This document shows, in pieces, positions 11,704-63,696 of a DNA stretch of 64,000 nt. The DNA is taken from positions 71,704 through 135,703 of the forward strand of contig CAYJCW010000003.1 in the NCBI GenBank assembly GCA_964368785.1, read 5' to 3'. The translations under genes were made by a program, and so were the position numbers. How positions within the stretch are numbered: the stretch's first letter is position 1; every line of letters begins with the position of its first letter. Source of the stretch: an uncultured Candidatus Saccharibacteria bacterium (lineage in GTDB: Bacteria > Patescibacteriota > Saccharimonadia > Saccharimonadales > Saccharimonadaceae). The notes below the pieces were generated by a model. It searched no databases, was not told the origin of the DNA, and saw only the letters and a program-made list of their open reading frames with translations.

Positions 11704-14700
11704 TTAGTCCCTAATCACCAGGAAGTTAATAAGTTCAAAATCATCCAAGCCCGATACATCATTACTAAGCACGGTCGTTTCACCAATTCTGAAAATGCTG
11801 TCGATGTCTTTTTCGTTCTTGACGGTAATAATAGACTGAATAGCATTCGTCAGAAGATCGGTATATCTCGACATATCTTTGCCACTGTTCGTTTCTGCGT
11901 TAAACTTAGCAACCATATCACTATCTGGCGTATCAAAGCCCTTGCCGAGATGACGAAGCTTATTAAGCAGCTCTTTCGACTGCAAGTGATTGACAGCCAC
12001 ACGACCATCGTCAGCGATGTATACCAGGTAGAATGGATGCAAGCGATTCTGTCTATCAATATTTACGCCTTGGTTAACATTCTTGAGCACGAATATCACG
12101 CCAGGTGGCGTATCCTCGCTAGCGCGAGCAACAGCATGAATGCCAAACGGAAGTGCGTCGGCCTCACCGTACTTTCCCAGTAACTCTTGGAGATCAAGAT
12201 GGAACTCGTTCAATCCTAGATCCATTATAGAAACTCCACCGCTCATGTCTTCTAGATCAACCACCTCATTTTGGATCTTTTCAAGTTGACTCTTGCGATA
12301 CTCAAGCTCCGCATTGTCAGCTTCATCAATTGGATTATCGTTACCTGTGGCGGTAAGGTTTACCATACGCATGCGACCCTCGACACGCGCTTTGAGGTTG
12401 ATGTATTCGTCGAGCGAAATATTTGGCCAAAAGTTTGTTAGCTGAATGACATTATTTGTTGAGCCAATACGATCGACACGTCCAAAGCGTTGAATAATTC
12501 GCACGGGATTCCAGTGAATGTCGTAGTTTATAAGATAGTCACAGTCTTGAAGGTTCTGACCCTCCGAGATACAGTCGGTGCCAAAGAGGATGTCTATTTC
12601 GCCAGGGTTTTCATCAAACAGCATATCGCGGCCTTTTGATTTGGGGGAGAATAGCGTCAGTATCGTATTGAAATCTGGCTTGACCGTACGCGTGGTTGGA
12701 ATGGTCATTGCAGGGTTGCGCGTACCGGTCACAACGGCAGAATCAAGACCGAACTCATTCTTAATCTTACTCGCAAGTTCTCCATAGAGGTAATCTGCCG
12801 TATCGGCAAAGGCAGTAAATACGAGTACTTTTTTGTTGTTGCCGTTGAGTGGGTTGTGTATTTTGTCACGAATTATTTCGAGGAGCCGCTGCAGCTTGAG
12901 GTCGTGCTCGTCGGCAATTGGCGTGATCATTGCAAGTAGTTCATTGAGTGTCGCCTTGTCCTCTTCGAGCTTGGCACGCCAGCTTACGAGATCGATATCC
13001 GCGAAATCAATTTTAAGATCTTTGCCGACTGTCCATTCCGCTTCTTCTGGGTCTTCGTCGTACTCGATCGTATTGATATTTGACTGATTTACTGTCGTGC
13101 TCGTTGCGCGCCCCTGCTCGAATCGATCAATATCATCAGTAATACCGTCAATCAGATCATACATACGCTCGGAGGTCTTACGGAAGGCGTATACACTACT
13201 TTCGAGGCGCTTTAGCATATTTGTTATCATCAGGACATTACGACCGGTTTCACGGTTTGCCCAGCTACGACCCTTGGCACTTTCGAGGTCAACATATTTG
13301 CCGAGCTTTGATGGGAATACGTATCGCATCGGAGTGTATACATCCATATTGAGAGAGTCTATGCGATTAAAAATCTCGTCGAAAGTAACGCCCTCGATAT
13401 CAGTCAATTCTGGGCGCTCAGAGATAGGCTTAAGGCGTGTCGGGAATTTACCAACGTCTGATAGCGAATAATAGCGTTCGATATGTTTACGTGAACGTGC
13501 AATCGTTACACTGTCGAGCAGTTCGAAAAAGTCGAAGTGTAGCATGTCGAGAAGTGCCGATGTGGTTCGACTTTCTGGCGGAAGTTCATTCCAAGCCTTG
13601 AATGCGCTGCTCGCATCACGAAAAATCTTTTCAACTGGATTCTCGGTGCCTAGCGATGAATCGAGATGAGTTGAGTCGCCCTCTGCTGCGAGCATTAGCT
13701 GGTTACGTAGATCTGTGAATCTATTGTTGACAGGTGTCGCTGAAAGCATTAATACCTTTGTCTTTACGCCATCACGGATAATGCGATTCATGAGTTTCTG
13801 ATAGCGATTCTCATACTCATCGTCTTCCTTGCGATGAGTACTTAACTCACCGTTACGGAAATTGTGCGACTCGTCGATCACAACTAGGTCATAGTTGCCC
13901 CAGTTGAGGTTTTGTAGATCGATACCATTGCTGTCGCCACGCTCTCGACTCATATCAGTATGAAATAGGACATCATAGCGCAAACGATCTTCTGCTACCG
14001 GATTGTTTTTGTAGTTGCCCTTGAAGGTATTCCAGTTGTCTTTTAGCCGCTTCGGAACAAGTACAAGCACATTCTTGTTACGTGATTCGTAATATTTAAT
14101 TACACCAAGCGCAGAGAATGTCTTACCGAGACCTACGGAGTCAGCGAGAATACAACCATTGTGTTTTTCGAGCTTCGAAATACAACCAATAACGGCATCT
14201 TTTTGGAAGTCGTATAGCTTGCTCCAGATTACAGAATTCTTAAACCCGGTGGCTTCGTTTGGTAGGTAGTCGGCATTGAGGTCTTCAAGAAATTCGCTAA
14301 AGATATTGTACAGCGCAGCAAAATAGATAAGCTCTGGTGAATTCTCTTTGTATGCGGCTGTGATGTTTTCGAGTACTGATTCTGTAACGTCGGCAATCTT
14401 TTCGTCGTCATTCCATACAGACTCGAACGTGTCTATGAAATGTTGCGCCTGCGGTGAATAAACTTTCGTCGTGGTAGAGTATGCGTTGTGGCCTCTATCC
14501 GCTCCTAAGTCGGCCGTGGTGAAATTCATAAGAGGAGAATAGGCAGCGTCTTGTTCGCTGTTTTGTACGGACATAAAAGGCATCATTTGTTCGCCTGATA
14601 CGTTTGACCTAAACTTTACCTTCCGACGAATCCATTCAGCACACTCTTTGGCAATGGCTTGCTGGTTTAGCTCATTGCGAAGTTTTATCTCGAAGTCAGT

Positions 14701-53991: not shown

Positions 53992-54393
53992 ATGTCACTA
54001 CAAACTACTGACCCAATCGCCGACCTCCTGACTCGTATTCGTAACGCAGTTATGGTTGGTAAGAACGAAATCACTGTTCCTTCAAGCAAGCTTAAGGTGG
54101 TGGTAGCTGAAGAACTCAAAAAGGCTGGCTACGTTGACGCCGTGAAGGTAGAAAGCGCAAAGCCTCGCGATATTTTGGTGGTTACCATTAACAAGCCAGG
54201 GGAGAGCTCAACAATAAACGAAATCAAGCGCCTTTCAAAGCCTGGACGCCGTGTGTATGTTAGTGCAAACGATATCCCTCGGGTAAAAAGCGGCCGCGGT
54301 ATCGTCTTGGTGAGCACCTCTAAGGGCGTTGTGACCGGCCAAGAGGCTGTTAAGCAGCGGCTTGGCGGTGAACTTCTTTTGAGCGTTTATTAG
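53992..54393 (+). CDS. rpsH: 30S ribosomal protein S8
   Basis: DPIADLLTRIRNA, SKPGRRVY, GGELL. Confidence 0.98.
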   Translation: MSLQTTDPIADLLTRIRNAVMVGKNEITVPSSKLKVVVAEELKKAGYVDAVKVESAKPRDILVVTINKPGESSTINEIKRLSKPGRRVYVSANDIPRVKSGRGIVLVSTSKGVVTGQEAVKQRLGGELLLSVY

Positions 54394-54442: not shown

Positions 54443-56887
54443 TTATTGTTTCCCCGCCTCTTTTTGCTGCGTATACCCACATCCATACCAAAAGTTGCTA
54501 CACCCATAAAATTCACCATTCGTACCACTGCGCATAATAAGGTATCCGCTATGGCAGGCTGGACAACGTGTCTGGCTCTCCTTGTTTTCGGGCTCAAGCG
54601 GGTCTAGGTTGAGTTCATCGACAAATGGTGATGGATTGTGCTCTGTGCAAATAATCGTCGTCGAAAGTTTTGCCCGGGTAAGCGCTACGTAAAAAAGACG
54701 GCGCTCTTCTGCGTTTGGGTACTCGTCTTTATGAGCAAGCAATAGGTGAAGGACAGGATCATCTTCTCGCATGGCTGGTATGCCCCTTGTACCACCGTTG
54801 CCGTTAAGGATAAACGCATAATCACAGGTTAACCCTTTCGAGGCATGCATGGTCATGAACTCGAGCGTCAGGCGAAAGCCGGTTCGTGTATCGGTCCATT
54901 CAACCATCGTGCCCATTTCATTAAGGGCACGGAATTGCAGACGAGGGTCTTGGTAGCCAAGAAGACGCTGAATATCATGCTTATAGCGGCCAATGAGAAA
55001 AATTGTCCTATGTCGTAGACCGTCTGTTCCTACAGTATCAATAAGTCGCTGGAGTTCCTCGCCAAGCGCGGTCGCATCATTATCCAAACCTGCCGTGCGG
55101 TTAACGGCTAATTTTGTCGTGGCAGGAAGTGTACTGTAGGGATTTTTTTGCACCTGCGAAGAGTTCTTCGTAATAAATGTGGTTGTCGCGCCAAGGAGCG
55201 GATTGTTAAAGCGGTGCGTTTGCTCAATAACGCTATGGCGAGTTGTGCGGGCGAATCGTTTCTCAAAATCGTTCAGCAATGTTAAATCGCTCCCGGCAAA
55301 GCGGAAAATAGATTGCCAGTCATCACCAACGGCAAATAATTTTGAGCGAGGGTTGCGGTCGAGAAGTGCTCTTAGGAGCCGGTATCGCGCGCCGGAAAGA
55401 TCTTGTACTTCATCAACCAAGATATAGTCATACTCCATTACGCCGGCTGGAAGCAACGGAAGCGTCTGCGCTGCGGTAACGATCATATCCGAAAAGTCGA
55501 TTGCATCAGCTTCTTGAAGTGAGGTCTCGTATAGTTCATAGATTTCTTCAAACAAAGCAAGAAAAGCATTCGTTCTGGCGCGCTGATAAACGTTTGGCAG
55601 TTCATGAAGACGCTTTCGAATGGTGGCTAGGCTAAATTCACTGGTTTTTAATAATCCAAGAAAAGAAATGAGGAGTGTATTAAATGCTGCCACCTCTGTG
55701 CTGTATGATTGATGAATAAGGGCGGCAATTTCTGACTCTTGTCGACGAATAATATGCACACCTTGAGCCTTCAGGCGTTTTTCGAGATTTTGAAGAACGG
55801 TTCCCTCTTGAAATTCATAACTAAACGTTTCAATAAGGCGCGTGCCGCCCTGACTATGATACTCGCGGTTCCATTTCATTTTACGGCGATAGTATTTGTA
55901 GTCTATATCAGGACGCGTTTTTCCTTGACGATTAATACCCTGATGCTCAAGATAGACAGGTTCTTTATATTGAGTAATAGTGAAATCGGGTTTGTAATTA
56001 CTATTTCCCGGAAAAGGCTTTTCATATTCGTAAGGAATAGAATTAATAAATAAGAAATTTGCAATAATTTGCTCTTCTTTTGAACGCACCCTCTCGCCGT
56101 GGTAGGTTTGCTTGTCTTGAGAGTAAGTACTTTTGTTCATCGACACGGGTTTTAGCGTATGAGTTTGAAAGACCCGGTTTCTTTGGACAAGCTCCTCAAG
56201 GGTCTTTACTTCAATGGGCGGTGTAGGCATCGAGAAGTAATTGAGAATATAGTCATTATAACGCCGCGCAAATGTCTCGCTATTTTCTATGCGGTCTTTA
56301 ATAATCTCGGTAAGCATAGCTTGCTGTTGAGTTTGGCTGACAACTTTGGCTTTCTTACCTAAAATGGTATTTCCAAGCGCGTGAAAAGTCTTGCCATCGA
56401 CAGCAATACCTAGCCTCTTAAGCCGCTCGGCAAGTTCATCAGCGCTTGCTTTGGTGAACGAAATAGTTAAAATACGCGCTGGGTTAATATGGAGTTCCTC
56501 CACAAGGTATTGGCACTTGGCAAGCAGGCTCAGTGTTTTACCACTCCCGGCTGCTGCCATAACGAGCTGCGCATCTTCAGTGGCTACGACGGCTTCGATC
56601 TGTTGGGCATCAAGGGGGCGCCCCTCTATAATAAAAGGCCGTTGCTGGGCAGCGGCAATTACCTTTTGGTTATGAGTCTGGCGCGTAGATTCGCTCCCAA
56701 GACGGTATGCCGCTCGCCTCGCCGCAGCGGTTGCTATAAACGAAAGGGGATGATGAAAAAATGCGCGTAAAGAGTGCGCTGCGGTGGGCTGAGGCGAGCG
56801 TGCCTCGGCAAGTTCTGAGAAACTAATAAATCGCTCGGTAGCATAAAGCTTTTGGAGTGCATCGGTGGGAGGGGGTGTAAGGGGCAT
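54443..56887 (-). CDS. UvrD/helicase IV-like SF1 helicase with nuclease-like insert and C-terminal topoisomerase-type Zn ribbon
   Basis: AAAGSGKT, ILVDEVQD, VGDDWQSIFRF, HASKGL, EERRLFYVALTRAK; YEYE...YKPDF...EHQG insert; CPAC...CSNF..C. Confidence 0.88.
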   Translation of the reverse strand: MPLTPPPTDALQKLYATERFISFSELAEARSPQPTAAHSLRAFFHHPLSFIATAAARRAAYRLGSESTRQTHNQKVIAAAQQRPFIIEGRPLDAQQIEAVVATEDAQLVMAAAGSGKTLSLLAKCQYLVEELHINPARILTISFTKASADELAERLKRLGIAVDGKTFHALGNTILGKKAKVVSQTQQQAMLTEIIKDRIENSETFARRYNDYILNYFSMPTPPIEVKTLEELVQRNRVFQTHTLKPVSMNKSTYSQDKQTYHGERVRSKEEQIIANFLFINSIPYEYEKPFPGNSNYKPDFTITQYKEPVYLEHQGINRQGKTRPDIDYKYYRRKMKWNREYHSQGGTRLIETFSYEFQEGTVLQNLEKRLKAQGVHIIRRQESEIAALIHQSYSTEVAAFNTLLISFLGLLKTSEFSLATIRKRLHELPNVYQRARTNAFLALFEEIYELYETSLQEADAIDFSDMIVTAAQTLPLLPAGVMEYDYILVDEVQDLSGARYRLLRALLDRNPRSKLFAVGDDWQSIFRFAGSDLTLLNDFEKRFARTTRHSVIEQTHRFNNPLLGATTTFITKNSSQVQKNPYSTLPATTKLAVNRTAGLDNDATALGEELQRLIDTVGTDGLRHRTIFLIGRYKHDIQRLLGYQDPRLQFRALNEMGTMVEWTDTRTGFRLTLEFMTMHASKGLTCDYAFILNGNGGTRGIPAMREDDPVLHLLLAHKDEYPNAEERRLFYVALTRAKLSTTIICTEHNPSPFVDELNLDPLEPENKESQTRCPACHSGYLIMRSGTNGEFYGCSNFWYGCGYTQQKEAGKQ

Positions 56888-56896
56888 GCGGTGTCT

Positions 56897-57388
56897 CTAA
56901 AAGGTCAAGCTATCTATTTCTTGCTGAATGGAGTGAAGCTCGTGCTCCATGGCCTGACTGCGCTGTTGCTCTTGCTGGTCGACCTCGTGTTGAAACTGCC
57001 CAAGCTGTTCGTCAAGCTGCCGAATTGTATTGGGGTCTTGTGCGTTTTGCCGTTGGCGCTCAAGGTCGCGCCGTTTTGTTCGCATATCGGCTTCAAAATG
57101 TGCTTTATCGTTCTGGAAGGTGTTCCGCACGCTTGCCTGCTTTGCGTGAAGGCGGTCAATGTACGTGTGCGTATCTTGAATTTGCTGTTTGAGTGCCGCG
57201 ATATCTCGTTCGAGCTGTGCTTTATGGTCTTTCTCGCGGCCTAGGTACCCACCAACGGCGGCGCCAAGAAGAGGGTTTTTAGTAAGCGCTGCTCCGATGC
57301 CCGCTCCGGTAAGCTTATTACCGACCGACTCAAGTTCCCGTTCTTTTTCGTGTAAACGGTCTTCTAGCTTTTGGATACTTTCTCTCAT
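56897..57388 (-). CDS. glycine-zipper plus coiled-coil protein
   Basis: GAGIGAA...GAAVGGYLG; Q/E-rich heptads; GGAGG RBS. Confidence 0.75.
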   Translation of the reverse strand: MRESIQKLEDRLHEKERELESVGNKLTGAGIGAALTKNPLLGAAVGGYLGREKDHKAQLERDIAALKQQIQDTHTYIDRLHAKQASVRNTFQNDKAHFEADMRTKRRDLERQRQNAQDPNTIRQLDEQLGQFQHEVDQQEQQRSQAMEHELHSIQQEIDSLTF

Positions 57389-57430: not shown

Positions 57431-57994
57431 CTATGTCGGACTCTTTTTTACGGCGTTAGCAAGTGTATCACCGATTGCATTGCCATATATTGAGGCAGGA
57501 ATATGGTTGCTCATAGTGCCAATAACGCTGAGCCTACCAAGCTGGTGCGATGCACTCATGAAGTGGGACCCATAACGAAAGGCAACTTCATAGGCCTTGC
57601 TAAGCGGCGTACGCTTTTCGGGGAGTGCGGTGTACATAATGCGTGCCAAAGCGTGGGTCCACAGGTAATAGGTGTCACCAGCGGCATCCTGGTAAGGCAC
57701 GGTATCGCTGGTAGATTTTGCGGCAGTGAGCGACGCCTGCCATTCACGCATAAGAGTGAGTGCCGTATCTTCTGACATGTGCGGTAGGCCATCAATGGCA
57801 GGGGAATCTCTCCATCGGGCAAAATGCCTGCTGGCAATAAATAAGTTCCACACTGCAGAAGGTATAGTCGGGGCGTGTTCAAGAGCAAGTCGCAGTTGTT
57901 CTGATGGCGTAACGGGCCCGTGCTTTGCTTGGTCGATAATTGCTTCGTGTAGGCTATCAACAACTTCGTAAGGGGTAGACATTGCCGTGGCCAA
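57431..57994 (-). CDS. hypothetical protein, start uncertain
   Basis: 187-aa ORF; the frame stays open well upstream without ATG/GTG/TTG. Confidence 0.55.
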   Translation of the reverse strand: MATAMSTPYEVVDSLHEAIIDQAKHGPVTPSEQLRLALEHAPTIPSAVWNLFIASRHFARWRDSPAIDGLPHMSEDTALTLMREWQASLTAAKSTSDTVPYQDAAGDTYYLWTHALARIMYTALPEKRTPLSKAYEVAFRYGSHFMSASHQLGRLSVIGTMSNHIPASIYGNAIGDTLANAVKKSPT

Positions 57995-58285
57995 GCCGTT
58001 ACGGTCACTAAATTGAAAGAGAACGTTTGCAAACCAGCTTTGCTGTTTGGTGGTAAGGGGGTCTGTTGAGGAAAGGGGAAGGAAGCTCTCAAGGTGTTGG
58101 CTTATCGTTTGAAGTGTGTCATCGAGCGGCGGGTGTGCGGGCTGCTTGACTGTTTCGTCCCAGTCGGCACGAACTGTTCGGTAGAGGGGTCGAAAAGGAG
58201 GAAGAGCAAAGGAAGCGGCGGTTATTCCGATATGTGCAAGCGGTAATTCGGCTGGCCGACAAGGGGGGTGGTATACTGGGCTAAT

Positions 58286-59302
58286 ATGGCTACACGCAAC
58301 CGGATACGCAGAAGAGACATGGCCGCAATCGGCAGCATACTTGCTGCGCTGCTGCTCTTGGCGGTGATTATGCTAAGTATGCATATGGGTGCCCTGCGGT
58401 CTCGAATAGCCCAGCTCGAGCTCAAGTTGAGCGCCACTGAAAAGCAGGTGATGCTTCAACGCAACGCTTTTTGTTCCGACGCCTACACCTATCGGGCGGG
58501 GAATATGACGACCCGCCATACTATTGACGTTGACGGCCAGCTGCGGAACTACATTGTACATACACCACTCCATTATGACCCGAGCGTTCGGTATCCGGTG
58601 ATATTGAGTTTTGATGGCATCGACGGCAGCGGTAGCCAAATGGAGGAATATTCTGGTCTTAATAGCTTGCCGGCGCTTGTCGTGTACCCCGACTCGTTGC
58701 CAGGAATCCAAGGTTTTACTGCCTGGCAAGGAGCGCCTTACTCATTGCAAGGCGATTATGATATTCAGTTCGTGCGTCAACTCCTCGACACTCTCCCGTC
58801 GCAGTACTGTGCTGATAGCGCAAACATCTTTGCTGTGGGGATGTCTAACGGTGGGGGCTTTGCTGTTCTTGCGGGGTGCGCGCTTTCTGGGCAGATTAAG
58901 GCTATTGCGAGTGTCTCTGGCGCCTATTACACTCCATGCCAAAATACAAAGCGGCAGCCATCGCTCCTTCTTATACATGGTATGCGTGATCAGCAGGTTC
59001 CCTTTGAAGGCTCAACCCGCAAACGGTTGCCAAAGGTGCTTTATTGGGCCGAGCAGCAGGCAAAGGCACGTCATTGCCGAGCGGCCACAAAAGTGGCAAA
59101 AGATGCAAGCGACACAAAAGATGCTGCCACACGGCGTTACGTGTGGTATGGTTGCGTGAACGACTCAACTGTACGCCTGATTGTATTCCGCGACCAAGAG
59201 CACGGTTGGCTCATGAAGCCTCAAAAGTTCAGAAGTGCATCCGAGAAGCCGCAGAGCGTGACCAGATATATTTGGGAATTTTTTCAGGGGGAGGCAGGGT
59301 GA
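58286..59302 (+). CDS. membrane-anchored alpha/beta hydrolase (PHB depolymerase/LpqC-like esterase)
   Basis: N-terminal TM, VVYPD, D..F, GMSNGG nucleophile elbow, IHGMRD, EHGW. Confidence 0.85.
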   Translation: MATRNRIRRRDMAAIGSILAALLLLAVIMLSMHMGALRSRIAQLELKLSATEKQVMLQRNAFCSDAYTYRAGNMTTRHTIDVDGQLRNYIVHTPLHYDPSVRYPVILSFDGIDGSGSQMEEYSGLNSLPALVVYPDSLPGIQGFTAWQGAPYSLQGDYDIQFVRQLLDTLPSQYCADSANIFAVGMSNGGGFAVLAGCALSGQIKAIASVSGAYYTPCQNTKRQPSLLLIHGMRDQQVPFEGSTRKRLPKVLYWAEQQAKARHCRAATKVAKDASDTKDAATRRYVWYGCVNDSTVRLIVFRDQEHGWLMKPQKFRSASEKPQSVTRYIWEFFQGEAG

Positions 59303-60388: not shown

Positions 60389-60967
60389 ATGGCAGAAGTA
60401 CAACGAAACAACGCTCGTGGCGGAAACAATCGTGGCCGCCGCGACCAAGCTCCCGAGGAGCCAAAACAATTTGAAGAACTCGTTATCAACATTGACCGCG
60501 TGTCACGTGTGGTAAAAGGTGGGCGCCGTTTCCGTTTCAAGGCACTCGTGGTTGTGGGTGACCGCAAAAACCGCGTTGGTGTTGGTGTTGCAAAGGGTGC
60601 CGATGTACAGGTGGCTGTACAAAAAGCAACTGATGTAGCAAAGAAAAACCTTATCACCATTCCGATTGTTAACGAAACCATTCCTCATGAAAACGAAGTG
60701 AAGTTCTCTGGTGCACAAGTGCTCCTTAAGCCAGCTGCCCCAGGTACCGGTATCATTGCCGGTGGTGTAGTTCGTTCAATCATTGGGGTAACCGGTATCC
60801 GCAACTTGCTTTCAAAGTCACTTAACTCTACCAATAAGGTAAATATCGCGTACGCTACTATTGAAGCGCTTCGCGGCCTTGTACCAAAAGAAGAGTGGCT
60901 GAACGCTTCACCTCGCAAAACAGCTAAGACCGTAGCGAAGAAAGCGGATGCGAAGGAGGCCAAATAA
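60389..60967 (+). CDS. rpsE: 30S ribosomal protein S5
   Basis: RVSRVVKGGRRFRF, PAAPGTGIIAGG. Confidence 0.98.
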   Translation: MAEVQRNNARGGNNRGRRDQAPEEPKQFEELVINIDRVSRVVKGGRRFRFKALVVVGDRKNRVGVGVAKGADVQVAVQKATDVAKKNLITIPIVNETIPHENEVKFSGAQVLLKPAAPGTGIIAGGVVRSIIGVTGIRNLLSKSLNSTNKVNIAYATIEALRGLVPKEEWLNASPRKTAKTVAKKADAKEAK

Positions 60968-61449
60968 TGACTAAGTACAACGAACTCCTTGCTGGAGCAA
61001 ACAAAGACAAGAAGCGTGTTGGCCGTGGTATTTCAGCGGGCGGTGGTAAGACTGCGGGCCGTGGTACCAAGGGCCAAAATGCACGTACGGGTAAAAAGCT
61101 TCGCGCAACCTTCCAGGGTGGCCAGCGCACACTTGTGCGGGCAGTGCCTAAGGCGCGCGGTTTCAAGAGCCTCCGCACTCCAGCGCAGGTTGTCTACCTC
61201 GATACGCTTAACAGCTTTGAAGGAAAGGCGGTTGATAACGAAGCGCTCTTTCAGCAGGGGTACATCTCAACTCCCTTCCACACGGTAAAGGTTATTACTC
61301 GTGGTGAACTTTCTAAGGCGCTTACTGTAAAAGTTGCTGGTGCAAGTAAATCTTCGCAGGAAGCTATCGTGAAGGCTGGTGGTACCTTTGAAAAGACTGC
61401 CGTGCCTCTAAAGAAGAGTACGAAGGCTGCGGAAGCGGCTGATAAGTAG
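60967..61449 (+). CDS. rplO: 50S ribosomal protein L15 (no rpmD gene before it)
   Basis: RVGRGISAGGGKTAGRGTKGQ, FQGGQ. Confidence 0.97.
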   Translation: MTKYNELLAGANKDKKRVGRGISAGGGKTAGRGTKGQNARTGKKLRATFQGGQRTLVRAVPKARGFKSLRTPAQVVYLDTLNSFEGKAVDNEALFQQGYISTPFHTVKVITRGELSKALTVKVAGASKSSQEAIVKAGGTFEKTAVPLKKSTKAAEAADK

Positions 61450-61456
61450 AGCTTTC

Positions 61457-61497
61457 TTAAATTTGAAGAGCCCCAAGGTGGGGCTCTTCAAATTTAA
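61457..61497. terminator. perfect 18-bp inverted repeat after rplO
   Basis: TTAAATTTGAAGAGCCCC-AAGGT-GGGGCTCTTCAAATTTAA. Confidence 0.8.
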
Positions 61498-61515
61498 TGA
61501 ATCAGAGGGCGATAA

Positions 61516-61544
61516 TTGACAGTATTTAGCGCCTGTGCTACAAT
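61516..61544 (+). promoter_or_regulatory. near-consensus promoter (TTGACA-17-TACAAT, extended -10) firing into the 3' end of the NYN gene
   Basis: TTGACA at 61516-21, TG at 61536-37, TACAAT at 61539-44. Confidence 0.85.
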
Positions 61545-61550
61545 GAAGGC

Positions 61551-61605
61551 ATAAAGACGAAGGCGATCCGAACGGTTAATTACCTAAGGAGGACCTTCTT
61601 TTTTT
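61551..61605 (+). ncRNA. putative sRNA antisense to the NYN gene 3' end
   Basis: Starts ATAAAGACG; GAAGG/CCTTC closing stem followed by T7; no ORF. Confidence 0.6.
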
Positions 61606-62118
61606 GTGTTCAATTTTCTTCTTCACGCTAGAATTATTAAGGTAATCAAAGTATTTTGGTTCCAGGGTTCTGTAAAGTGAAGATGCATACCTCTTATTCG
61701 GGAAAAGAATTTTTTCAAACCGTCTCTCGCTAATCAGGAATTTTACCAGCGATTTATAATCGCCATCACCAGAAACAAGCACAACCTTGTCGAAAGCCTC
61801 TTTGAGATAAAGACGCTTCATTGCATTAAAGATGATGTCAGAGTCGACATTGCCTTTTTTGGTTCCAAGCATTGCACTATTATGCTCACGGAATATAAGT
61901 ATGAAGCCGGCCTTATGAATCGATTCGTATAGCCGGTCATATTCTTCGCCGGATTGGACGTACCCTAGGTAGTAGTAAGCATCTATAACGTGATACTTTT
62001 CTAATAAGTAACGCCGAAATCGTGTTAGGTCAATACTCCATTTAGGGCTACTTTTTGCAGTGCCCATATACAGATTTTGACCATCAATGTATGCGATATT
62101 CTTTACGTTTTCTGGCAT
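61576..62118 (-). CDS. NYN-domain (LabA/DUF88, PIN-like) putative RNase
   Basis: AYIDGQNL, KKGNVDSDI, LVSGDGDY. Confidence 0.9.
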   Translation of the reverse strand: MPENVKNIAYIDGQNLYMGTAKSSPKWSIDLTRFRRYLLEKYHVIDAYYYLGYVQSGEEYDRLYESIHKAGFILIFREHNSAMLGTKKGNVDSDIIFNAMKRLYLKEAFDKVVLVSGDGDYKSLVKFLISERRFEKILFPNKRYASSLYRTLEPKYFDYLNNSSVKKKIEHKKRRSSLGN

Positions 62119-62283
62119 AATAACCTCTAGCTCTATTATATCAGCTTATTCTCAGCATCGTGGTAAAATAAAAAGAAGCAATGCATCTACCCTGACGAGG
62201 TGAAATAGTGTACTATAGAAGAAGAACTTGAGAGTAATCTAATTTCGGGGTAATCTGGAAACCAAAAGGAAGTCTAGCGTCTG

Positions 62284-63696
62284 ATGAACTGGAAAACAAT
62301 CTTCAAATCATTCAAAAATAAGGATATGCAACGGCGCCTGCTTATTGTGCTAGGCTTAATTGTCGTGTACCGTTTGCTGGCGCATGTGCCCATCCCAATG
62401 GCTGAACCAACCCAGTTACGCGAAGTGCTGAATAGCTTGGTGACCGGCAGCGATTTTGGCGGCTTCTTGAACCTTCTTTCGGGGGGTGCGTTGGCGAGCT
62501 TCTCAATTGTATTGGTCGGGCTCACGCCGTTTATTACCGCCTCAATTATTTCCCAGCTGCTTACAAAAGCGATTCCTCGCCTTGAAGAGCTTCACAAAGA
62601 CGGCGAAACGGGTCGTCGTAAAATTAACCAGTGGACTCGTGTTATGACCATTCCGTTGGCAATCGTCCAGTCGATTGCCTTCATCTTCATTCTTCGCCAA
62701 ACCGTACTAGCGGGGAATACTACGGTACTCGCCGACCCAACAGCTATGGAGTGGACCGTTGCCATCACCGCCATGTCGGCCGGTGCGGTGCTGCTTATGT
62801 GGCTCGGTGAGCTTATGACCGAGCAGGGGGTGGGTAATGGTATTAGCCTGCTCATCTTTGCGGGTATTATTAGCCAGCTGCCGTCAATGGTTTCGTCAAT
62901 TGTGCCGGTGCTTTTTGATACATCAGCGGGCGGGTTGGCTGTATTTAACTGGTTTACAATTCCTGTTAATCCGGCTGTTTTTTGGCCGCTGCTTGCAATC
63001 TTGCTGGTGTCGCTCGTTCTATTGTACTTTTTGGTGAAGGTGAACGAAGCGCAGCGTATTATTACTATTAACTATGCTAAGCGGGTGCACGGTAATAGTA
63101 GCTACGGGGGGGTAAAAAGTATTCTACCGGTAAAACTCATCGCTGCAGGGGTGATTCCCGTAATTTTTGCGGTGGCGTTTCTATCGCTTCCCGCCTTTGT
63201 AGGGCAGGTGCTAAAAGCAACCGGCAATCCGGCCTATCTCGAGCTTGCGAATAACCTGATTGTTTGGTTCCAGGCACCAAACCCAGGGGCCTTTACCGGT
63301 ACAGAGCTTCAGGCCTTTATTTACCCAGCCGCCTATTTCCTCTTGGTTATTTTCTTTACCTACTTTTACACGGGCATTGTATTTAACGCCAGCGAAATTG
63401 CCGAAAATCTTCAAAAGCAAGGTGGCTTTATTGAAGGGGTTCGCCCAGGCAAAACCACTGAAAAATACCTGTCTCGAACGGTAAATCGCTTAATCCTTTT
63501 TGGTTCACTAGTGCTTGGTTTTATCGCCATTACTCCATTTATTGCCGAGTACTTGCTCTTCAATATTTCGGGCATTTCGGGGCTTAACTTGGCTATTGGT
63601 GGTACGGGGCTGCTTATTGTAGTAACGGTTGGCCTTGAGGCGCTGCGCCAAATTAATTCGCGTGCCCTTATGGTTACTTACGACGATTACAAGTAA
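62284..63696 (+). CDS. secY: preprotein translocase subunit SecY
   Basis: GLTPFITASII, GVGNGISLLIF, AGVIPVIFA, GFIEGVRPG. Confidence 0.98.
   Translation: MNWKTIFKSFKNKDMQRRLLIVLGLIVVYRLLAHVPIPMAEPTQLREVLNSLVTGSDFGGFLNLLSGGALASFSIVLVGLTPFITASIISQLLTKAIPRLEELHKDGETGRRKINQWTRVMTIPLAIVQSIAFIFILRQTVLAGNTTVLADPTAMEWTVAITAMSAGAVLLMWLGELMTEQGVGNGISLLIFAGIISQLPSMVSSIVPVLFDTSAGGLAVFNWFTIPVNPAVFWPLLAILLVSLVLLYFLVKVNEAQRIITINYAKRVHGNSSYGGVKSILPVKLIAAGVIPVIFAVAFLSLPAFVGQVLKATGNPAYLELANNLIVWFQAPNPGAFTGTELQAFIYPAAYFLLVIFFTYFYTGIVFNASEIAENLQKQGGFIEGVRPGKTTEKYLSRTVNRLILFGSLVLGFIAITPFIAEYLLFNISGISGLNLAIGGTGLLIVVTVGLEALRQINSRALMVTYDDYK

Follow-up and report, generated by a model that had tools for sequence, protein, structure and literature searches.

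A structured small RNA gene convergent with an NYN-domain protein gene: a candidate RNA–protein toxin–antitoxin module of Patescibacteria

Among the toxin–antitoxin (TA) systems in which a small RNA controls a toxin, the type I systems txpA/ratA and bsrG/SR4 of B. subtilis and par RNA I/RNA II of pAD1 are convergent, their 3' ends overlapping, and SymE/SymR and RalR/RalA are type I systems with nuclease toxins (PMC4147584). In the 64,000-nt stretch of Candidatus Saccharibacteria contig CAYJCW010000003.1 analysed here (the window), a gene for an NYN-domain protein (referred to as NYN) is faced at its 3' end by a convergent gene for a predicted small RNA (sRNA). The best reading of this arrangement is a two-gene accessory module of ~0.75 kb, composed of NYN and a convergent gene for a structured RNA of ~55 nt, which is inserted between rplO and secY. 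That the sRNA gene is real and functionally coupled to NYN we regard as very likely. No description of the NYN/RNA pair or of this RNA was found in Rfam, PADLOC, NCBIfam or the searchable literature (NYN combined with Patescibacteria, Candidate Phyla Radiation (CPR), type III TA or abortive infection), and the module looks like a previously undescribed, RNA-controlled toxin or defence unit with a wide distribution in Patescibacteria (CPR) and further copies in viral contigs.

With txpA/ratA, bsrG/SR4 and par the locus shares the convergent 3' overlap, the strong promoter of the RNA, the lack of a protein antitoxin and the location on mobile or accessory DNA; the hairpin is shared between both genes as in par. 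Like a type I antitoxin, the predicted sRNA is complementary to the predicted NYN mRNA, namely to the last 30 nt of the coding sequence (CDS) and the 3' untranslated region. However, NYN is a soluble enzyme of 180 aa, whereas the toxins of these systems are hydrophobic peptides of less than 60 aa, and the RNA is only ~55 nt long and carries a structured motif which is invariant across phyla and is also found alone, in arrays and in viral contigs, while cis-antisense RNAs need no such motif. As NYN is not a small peptide, the pair is not a type I system in the strict sense. SymE/SymR and RalR/RalA are similar in having an enzymatic, nucleic-acid-targeting toxin under the control of a small RNA, but their RNAs act at the 5' end or ribosome-binding site or in trans and have no structure conserved across phyla, and their toxins are unrelated to NYN.

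The type III systems ToxIN, CptIN, TenpIN and AbiQ-antiQ likewise combine an RNase-type protein with a small structured RNA, and occasional tandem arrays are also found here (loci L196 and L153). The conservation of sequence and structure in the NYN-associated RNA is consistent with recognition by a protein, as in type III. Phage-encoded pseudo-ToxI lets phages escape ToxIN, and the viral copies of the RNA described below are reminiscent of this. On the other hand, the fold is NYN/PIN-like here and ToxN/Kid-like in the type III toxins (ToxN/AbiQ/CptN/TenpN), and the type III antitoxin is a same-strand repeat array upstream of the toxin with a terminator in between, whereas the RNA described here is usually a single unit with its own promoter, convergent and downstream. 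Since toxin fold, RNA position and RNA orientation all differ, the module is not a type III system either. VapBC and other PIN-domain type II TA systems have a PIN-like nuclease fold as well and form small, mobile and often multi-copy modules, but they encode a protein antitoxin upstream in the operon, while the NYN unit has no protein partner. The same domain is found in the PF01936 LabA-DUF88 protein VPA0982 (2qip), and no RNA partner is recorded for the PF01936 family in the resources searched. By analogy with these systems, the module would work like a hybrid of type I and type III.

The features of the locus, in window coordinates, are the following.

61516-61544, + strand: sRNA promoter, with the -35 element TTGACA at 61516-21, a 17-nt spacer, TG at 61536-37 and the -10 element TACAAT at 61539-44
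61551-61605, + strand: predicted sRNA of 55 nt, an interrupted hairpin followed by U7
61576-62118, - strand: NYN gene, 180 aa, PF01936, LabA/DUF88-like
61576-61605, sRNA on + and NYN on -: overlap, in which the sRNA's 3' 30 nt are antisense to the last 9 codons and the stop codon of NYN (KKRRSSLGN-stop)
62124-62143, - strand: putative NYN expression signals read by eye, TGnTATAAT at 62143-62135 and a GAGG Shine-Dalgarno sequence at ~62124-62128, 5 nt before the ATG
61457-61497, both strands: inverted repeat of 19 bp, perfect, with a 3-nt loop, directly 3' of the rplO stop codon

A first-pass annotation of the window had pointed to a near-perfect promoter aimed at the 3' end of NYN, to a 55-nt RNA ending in a stem and U7, and to the antisense relation between the 3' 30 nt of this RNA and the KKRRSSLGN codons. 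These observations were borne out: the promoter matches the consensus in 11 of 12 positions, has an extended -10 element and is the sole such site in 60900-62700; the fold of the RNA was obtained by computation and a covariance model matches at 61550-61606; and the antisense part spans exactly the last 9 codons and the stop, with the stop TAA itself (61578-61576) falling within the apical loop of the sRNA. The annotation was also right in noting that no protein antitoxin is adjacent, as there is no further credible open reading frame (ORF) in the gap between rplO (60967-61449) and secY (62284-63696). The inverted repeat that it had described as insulating the unit from rplO is present; its length, given as 18 bp, had to be corrected to 19 bp, perfect and with a 3-nt loop.

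A scan of species-representative genomes yielded 80 loci, mostly from metagenome-assembled genomes (MAGs) of Patescibacteria (Saccharibacteria, Kaiser-, Nomura-, Wolfe-, Azam- and Berkelbacteria, Paceibacterota etc.); many of these loci are MAG contigs whose taxonomy labels are uncertain. In 79/79 assessable loci the covariance model places the RNA at the NYN 3' end, on the other strand; the 80th locus is cut by a contig end. The RNA is found even beside an NYN of only 35% identity (L153). In the window and nearly all loci the RNA is a single unit, convergent with and downstream of NYN. Tandem hairpins occur in L196:367-543, with three units before one terminator, and in L153:4828-4933, where two units follow one promoter and the second motif is divergent (CUGCGG / CCAAAGG). 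Two whole modules lie side by side in L182 and L204.

For the converse search, metagenomes were screened with the RNA motif alone, and the resulting proportions refer to a sample of the matches. Of the metagenome loci retrieved in this way, at least 120, most have a convergent NYN gene beside the RNA. Among the 124 metagenome matches listed, a convergent NYN ending -10 to +66 nt from the RNA was found for 94; the others include four second copies or arrays beside a pair, six contig ends and one chance match. About 20 of the matches listed are solitary RNA copies without NYN, including one beside an NYN remnant; in L089:514-700 the NYN 3' end is still recognisable as a remnant (tblastn E = 7e-5) beside an intact RNA. 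Furthermore, eight related contigs (L107, L125, L128, L131, L141, L183, L189 and L200) carry the RNA at one syntenic site with no NYN. Promoter and motif of the orphan sRNA genes are intact, and some of the eight syntenic copies have an eroded 3' arm or U-tract. Thus, RNA without NYN does occur, and no case of this NYN subfamily without the RNA was encountered in the sampled loci, an asymmetry as in toxin–antitoxin pairs. A distant NYN paralogue in L230:587-1198 (33% identity, 203 aa) has no detectable RNA copy; its insertion separates two glycosyltransferase genes which in L229 overlap, and represents a strain polymorphism.

The sRNA starts with the leader AUAAAGAC, followed by the helix P1, in which GAAGG (61559-63) pairs with CCUUC (61594-98), by a 3x3 internal loop and by the UCC/GGA pairs. 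In the apical part the invariant CCGAACGG (61568-75) and CCUAAGG (61583-89) give rise to a GAAC/UAA internal loop, above which GGU/ACC closes the apical loop UAAUU (61577-81); the U7 tract is located at 61599-605. The RAAC/UAA internal loop resembles the recurrent UAA/GAN motif. Taken for the window alone, the fold is weak (minimum free energy -14.2 kcal/mol, z = -1.7), and a generic terminator scan did not pick up the hairpin because of its long apical part. As these single-sequence statistics are modest, the case for the RNA rests on its conservation across relatives. Covariance model R1, which was built from 64 diverse copies including that of the window, gave exactly one significant match in the 64-kb window (61550-61606, 63.7 bits, E ~3e-15). 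The consensus opposite NYN consists of the promoter part TTGACA, 16-18 nt, (TG)n TAnAAT and 6 nt, followed by the RNA AUYAMGACGA-stem-CCRAACGG-YUAAYUR-CCUAAGG-stem-U-tract. In the 64 maximally diverse copies, 14 nucleotides (CCRAACGG...CCUAAGG) are invariant and ~10 more are near-invariant.

Across the genome-scan loci, conservation is far higher from the NYN stop codon onwards than in the NYN gene itself, whose third-codon positions are saturated (mean pairwise identity 0.41; 3/161 positions conserved to >=95%). In three loci whose CDS differ throughout, a stretch of ~70 nt from the A-tract to the 5' end of the RNA is 100% identical, and their similarity stops at the sRNA -35 element and at the start of NYN. 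Covariation is seen in the lower stem (8 pairs), with double changes in 10 of the 12 outer pairs. Compensatory, double-change cells amount to 82 as against 35 +/- 5 in column shuffles, and 87% of the stem cells are paired as against at most 67% in controls with slid partners, the alignment behind the second pair count having been fitted to the covariance model. The same helices were obtained independently with RNAalifold. Since the CC:GG and GG:CC pairs flanking the RAAC/UAA loop never change, they are no evidence for or against pairing. G.U (42) exceeds A.C (12) in the core of the stem, which favours the sRNA-sense strand; taken with the promoter and the U-tract, this excess identifies the strand opposite NYN as that of the functional transcript. 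A run of at least four T follows the stem in 181/192 copies.

The promoter is conserved in a similar manner. In 178 distinct copies the -10 element, at a fixed distance from the RNA, reads T88% A94% n A60% A65% T93%, preceded by TG (59/65%) and by TTG.. at -35, and the A located 7 nt after it is conserved to 98%. This nucleotide corresponds to 61551 in the window, and we infer that the sRNA starts at A61551. On average, the sRNA promoters match the consensus in 9.8 of 12 positions, compared with 8.2 for the best site in the 155 nt upstream of NYN and 7.2 for random 63-nt windows. The upstream promoter and leader of NYN are not conserved among homologues; in these unalignable regions the only signal is faint and AT-rich, and the choice of start codon is ambiguous.

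The position of the NYN stop codon was analysed for 167 NYN ORFs beside the motif. In 43 genes it lies in the apical loop (frame 2, tails …GSLGN/S), in 11 genes four nt further (frame 0, tail …GGLR), and in 47 genes the stop is a TAG complementary to the CUA of CCUAAGG (frame 1, …KKRAP), while the remaining 66 genes end before the hairpin. Because NYN genes run into the DNA of the RNA gene in any of three frames or stop short of it, selection must act on the nucleic acid and not on a peptide tail, and a conserved protein tail was consequently ruled out. The KKRRSSLGN tail is thus a by-product of the RNA gene, and the Lys/Arg-rich tails arise because they translate the complement of the terminator U-tract. 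The point made in the first-pass annotation, that the protein tail and the RNA are encoded on the same DNA, is therefore incidental, with frame 0, 1 or 2 used or the stop already passed in relatives. Its broader proposal of a functional unit of NYN and a cis-encoded RNA is well supported by the 79/79 linkage and by the conservation among CPR homologues, where promoter, start A, hairpin and U-tract are kept across many Patescibacteria lineages; the conservation check that the annotation had proposed thus gave a strongly positive answer.

The RNA could not be assigned to a described family. Over the 64-kb window Rfam 15 gave no match at gathering thresholds, and at E up to 10 no family covered the sRNA hairpin in a search over 61440-61700; of the weak matches, DLEU2_4 (61576-61643, E = 1.4, chance) touches the 3' part of the sRNA and the others lie on the inverted repeat behind rplO. 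Mimicry of a kink-turn, a tRNA anticodon arm or a T-arm by the apical part was dropped by eye, as the consensus features do not fit. The blocks AACGG and CCUAAGG (window 61568-61589) are adjacent in E. coli 23S rRNA as AACGG-U-CCUAAGG, at the 3' strand of helix 69 and in the junction that follows it. The resemblance was noted post hoc; it may be accidental, or it may indicate that NYN has an rRNA target which the sRNA mimics.

The NYN protein matches PF01936 over residues 10-144 (E = 1.9e-16, 61.3 bits against a gathering cut-off of 24.2). Among 29 homologues D92, D94, D118 and D120 are invariant and D12 is conserved to >=90%, which is consistent with an active PIN-like NYN nuclease, as predicted from the sequence. 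The sole relative in the PDB by sequence and by fold is 2qip, the LabA-like VPA0982 (Foldseek E = 1.8e-6, TM 0.61-0.67, ~20% identity; pLDDT of the AlphaFold model 77.5). A protein search at E up to 1e-3 returned ~4,000 relatives (cluster representatives), and species-representative genomes contain 346 stretches of this branch. The best 120 relatives are 65-82% identical, and those with a source name are labelled Saccharimonadales, Patescibacteria or Limnocylindria, the last likely being mis-binned. NCBIfam gave no match, and PADLOC gave only weak partial matches to HEC-09 (E = 4e-6) and to an NYN model (E = 0.004). In the window itself, a weak tblastn match of the NYN protein at 13456-13698 (-) (24.7% identity, E = 0.027) may reflect another NYN/PIN-like domain or noise.

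At least six distinct IMG/VR contigs contain full-length covariance-model matches of 37-49 bits with compensatory stems of their own. One copy is located 5 nt after the large-terminase gene (L166:8762-8820) and another just before the portal gene (L081:444-502); both are co-oriented with the phage genes and have no canonical promoter. Promoters are present at the viral copies L214/L220 and L225, L227 carries a complete NYN+RNA module beside a NUDIX-like ORF, and further viral copies were found in L211 and L216. Among the ORFs within 2.5 kb of most viral copies there is no integrase; L226 has recombinase-like ORFs. A scan of viral sequences with a fixed 7-nt spacer returned nothing because the stem length varies, whereas variable-gap and core patterns gave matches.

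In the window the module interrupts a spc-type ribosomal-protein operon on the + strand (rplF, rplR, rpsE, rplO, secY and infA), in which NYN is the lone minus-strand ORF between rplO and secY; its G+C content is 0.37-0.41 compared with ~0.5 in the flanks. Only one other locus (L124) is near secY, and the contexts vary from locus to locus. The unit lies near a SocA_Panacea antitoxin-domain protein, a type IIG restriction-modification enzyme and a Ymh-type protein in L202, near GmrSD in L204, near a Replic_Relax protein and an IS1595 transposase in L205, and near an RHH-type TA pair in L229. These varied contexts and mobile or defence-related neighbours indicate that the unit is accessory and mobile. 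In the locus alignment no mobility gene, transposase, or bounding or terminal repeats belong to the unit, and a fixed insertion site (homing) was rejected since the contexts differ. Furthermore, no conserved neighbour protein partner was found in the window unit or the other contexts inspected.

For the inverted repeat behind rplO the folding energies of the two strands are -33.2 and -30.3 kcal/mol (z about -6.5, and -6.6 for the stronger fold). The repeat is likely the terminator of rplO (+), possibly also terminating NYN (-) read-through. It is specific to the window and lies outside the conserved module, not being conserved in the alignment with L202 and L229. This 19-bp hairpin separates secY-infA from the rplO transcript. 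The sRNA promoter is co-directional with secY, and a leaky terminator would send antisense read-through over NYN into secY-infA; a candidate secY promoter, CTGACG-17-TATAGA, was noted by eye at ~62192-62220. The spc operon is broken a second time by an insertion of ~5 kb between rpsH (53992-54393) and rplF (59497-), which contains on the minus strand a UvrD-like helicase with a Top1-type zinc ribbon (54443-56887) and two unknown ORFs (56897-57388 and 57431-57994), and on the plus strand an esterase/S9-like hydrolase (58268-59302).

In two of the other loci solitary PemK/MazF-like toxin genes were observed (L153:4115-4975 and L089:940-1419; PF02452, E ~1e-12) with no upstream antitoxin ORF. The one in L153, located between hsdS and hsdR, is faced by TTGACA-17-TATAGT, leading to an unrelated hairpin RNA of ~70 nt whose U8 abuts the stop codon. 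At the one in L089, TTGACA-18-TATATA lies 35 nt from the stop codon in convergent orientation.

The facts that NYN is never found without the RNA, that the RNA is sometimes alone, that the contexts are mobile or defence-related and that viral copies exist fit the idea of a toxin and its antitoxin, and a TA or abortive-infection role of one kind or another appears somewhat probable to us. According to the reading that we favour, NYN would be the harmful effector, an RNase of the PIN-like NYN fold, and the sRNA, made in excess from its near-consensus sigma-70 promoter and ending at its own hairpin and U-tract terminator, would restrain it. Thereby, the NYN protein would recognise the invariant apical motif (CC-RAAC-GG...CC-UAA-GG with a YUNR-type loop cap) and the conserved 5' leader, and the sRNA would serve as inhibitor or pseudo-substrate in a type III-like sequestration. 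Full complementarity to the 3' end of the NYN mRNA would add a type I-like layer by duplex formation, RNase III-type decay and convergent transcription. Once the supply of sRNA stops, for example because a phage shuts off transcription or the element is lost, NYN would be freed and would degrade RNA; phages may respond with RNA copies of their own. What the sequences show is the anatomy, the conservation and covariation of the RNA, its strict linkage to NYN, the mobility of the unit and the solitary, tandem and viral copies; transcription, toxicity, the binder of the motif and the trigger are all proposed here from sequence comparison. To direct, type III-like recognition of the RNA antitoxin by NYN, with the antisense overlap as a second layer, we give slightly less than an even chance. 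Rather doubtful is the wider claim of a new class of RNA–protein TA or abortive-infection systems, specific to and widespread in Patescibacteria, in which the 55-nt RNA binds the NYN RNase via a UAA/GAN-type loop and phages employ decoys. In its boldest version the RNA would mimic the natural target of NYN, i.e. AACGG-U-CCUAAGG on the 3' side of 23S rRNA helix 69.

Several points weigh against this favoured reading. The single convergent downstream unit with a shared terminator-like hairpin is the architecture of type I and not of type III, and, with the PemK-like genes in view, RNase toxins of these genomes may share a general antisense theme in which a convergent sRNA lies at the 3' end of the gene. 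The apical loop starts with a YUNR-type motif in 179/192 copies, and YUNR loops are typical of the kissing loops of antisense RNAs, which points to RNA–RNA recognition. PF01936 proteins in bacteria, 2qip included, are largely uncharacterised, and "toxin" is a designation that we infer; in addition, NYN is unusually conserved for a toxin, with about 60-80% identity across phyla. Finally, the idea of viral copies as decoys rests on a handful of contigs.

Some of these points lead directly to a purely antisense, type I-like control, in which the sRNA pairs with the 3' end of the NYN mRNA and never contacts the NYN protein. YUNR kissing would be followed by duplex formation and RNase III cleavage or loss of a protective 3' hairpin, or the effect would be one of transcriptional interference. 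The convergent 3' overlap and shared hairpin are those of the type I systems txpA/ratA, bsrG/SR4 and par RNA I/RNA II (PMC4147584), the overlap is guaranteed by geometry, the YUNR loop start is nearly universal, and the PemK-like toxins of L153 and L089 are likewise faced by convergent promoters or RNAs, these being unrelated in sequence. However, cis-antisense pairing needs no set sequence, and with synonymous sites saturated it cannot explain why the 14 apical nucleotides and the 5' leader are (near-)invariant; nor does it explain the retention of the motif in copies that are solitary, tandem or viral and whose lower stems drift. No second target site was found on the NYN mRNA, the duplex energy of any such trans pairing being no better than for shuffled sequences. 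An invariant motif and leader, retained in such copies, are typical of protein-binding RNA, and since NYN is the only constant partner, recognition by NYN is favoured and antisense control alone is considered unlikely, if a serious contender.

The strict linkage and the unusual conservation of the protein would also suit a non-toxic ribonucleoprotein or regulatory pair, in which NYN is a processing or turnover enzyme and the RNA, or the 3' hairpin of the mRNA, is its substrate, cofactor or autoregulatory element, with no role in addiction or defence; the position of the module inside a housekeeping operon in the window and the functionally uncharacterised state of PF01936 agree with this as well. 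In contrast, variable contexts with mobile and defence neighbours, low G+C, several copies per contig (L182, L204), decay of NYN with retention of the RNA, occurrence in viral contigs and a patchy, accessory-like distribution instead of one copy per genome at a fixed site are not what such a pair would predict, and we hold it to be quite unlikely. An explanation at the DNA level, i.e. a recombination or attachment site, the end of a mobile element or a mere bidirectional terminator beside NYN, is highly improbable. The hairpin with its flanking A- and T-tracts does look like a bidirectional terminator, and phages carry copies, as is the case for att sites in small-RNA genes. Yet neither an element of this type nor a terminator accounts for a consensus promoter at a fixed distance with a conserved +1 A, for the compensatory changes or for G.U exceeding A.C on one strand, and a terminator does not require invariant unpaired nucleotides. 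The viral copies are whole hairpins with compensatory stems and mostly lack an integrase within 2.5 kb, and the unit is not bounded by a transposase or terminal repeats.

For annotation, the analysis implies that C-terminal tails of NYN proteins such as …GSLGN, …KKRAP and …GGLR are read-through into the RNA gene and not motifs. As the unit is tiny (~0.75 kb) and self-contained, direct testing in a heterologous host is feasible. If the favoured reading is true, the module would provide a new RNA family and, with NYN, a new toxin fold for systems with an RNA antitoxin, as well as a function for a branch of PF01936 that is very large and uncharacterised. Almost nothing appears to be known of the defence and addiction systems and the small RNAs of Patescibacteria, which are ultra-small episymbionts and for the most part uncultured; the RNA would thus be among the first conserved sRNAs described for these organisms, and its viral copies would be candidates for an arms race between phage and host that is carried out by RNA mimics.

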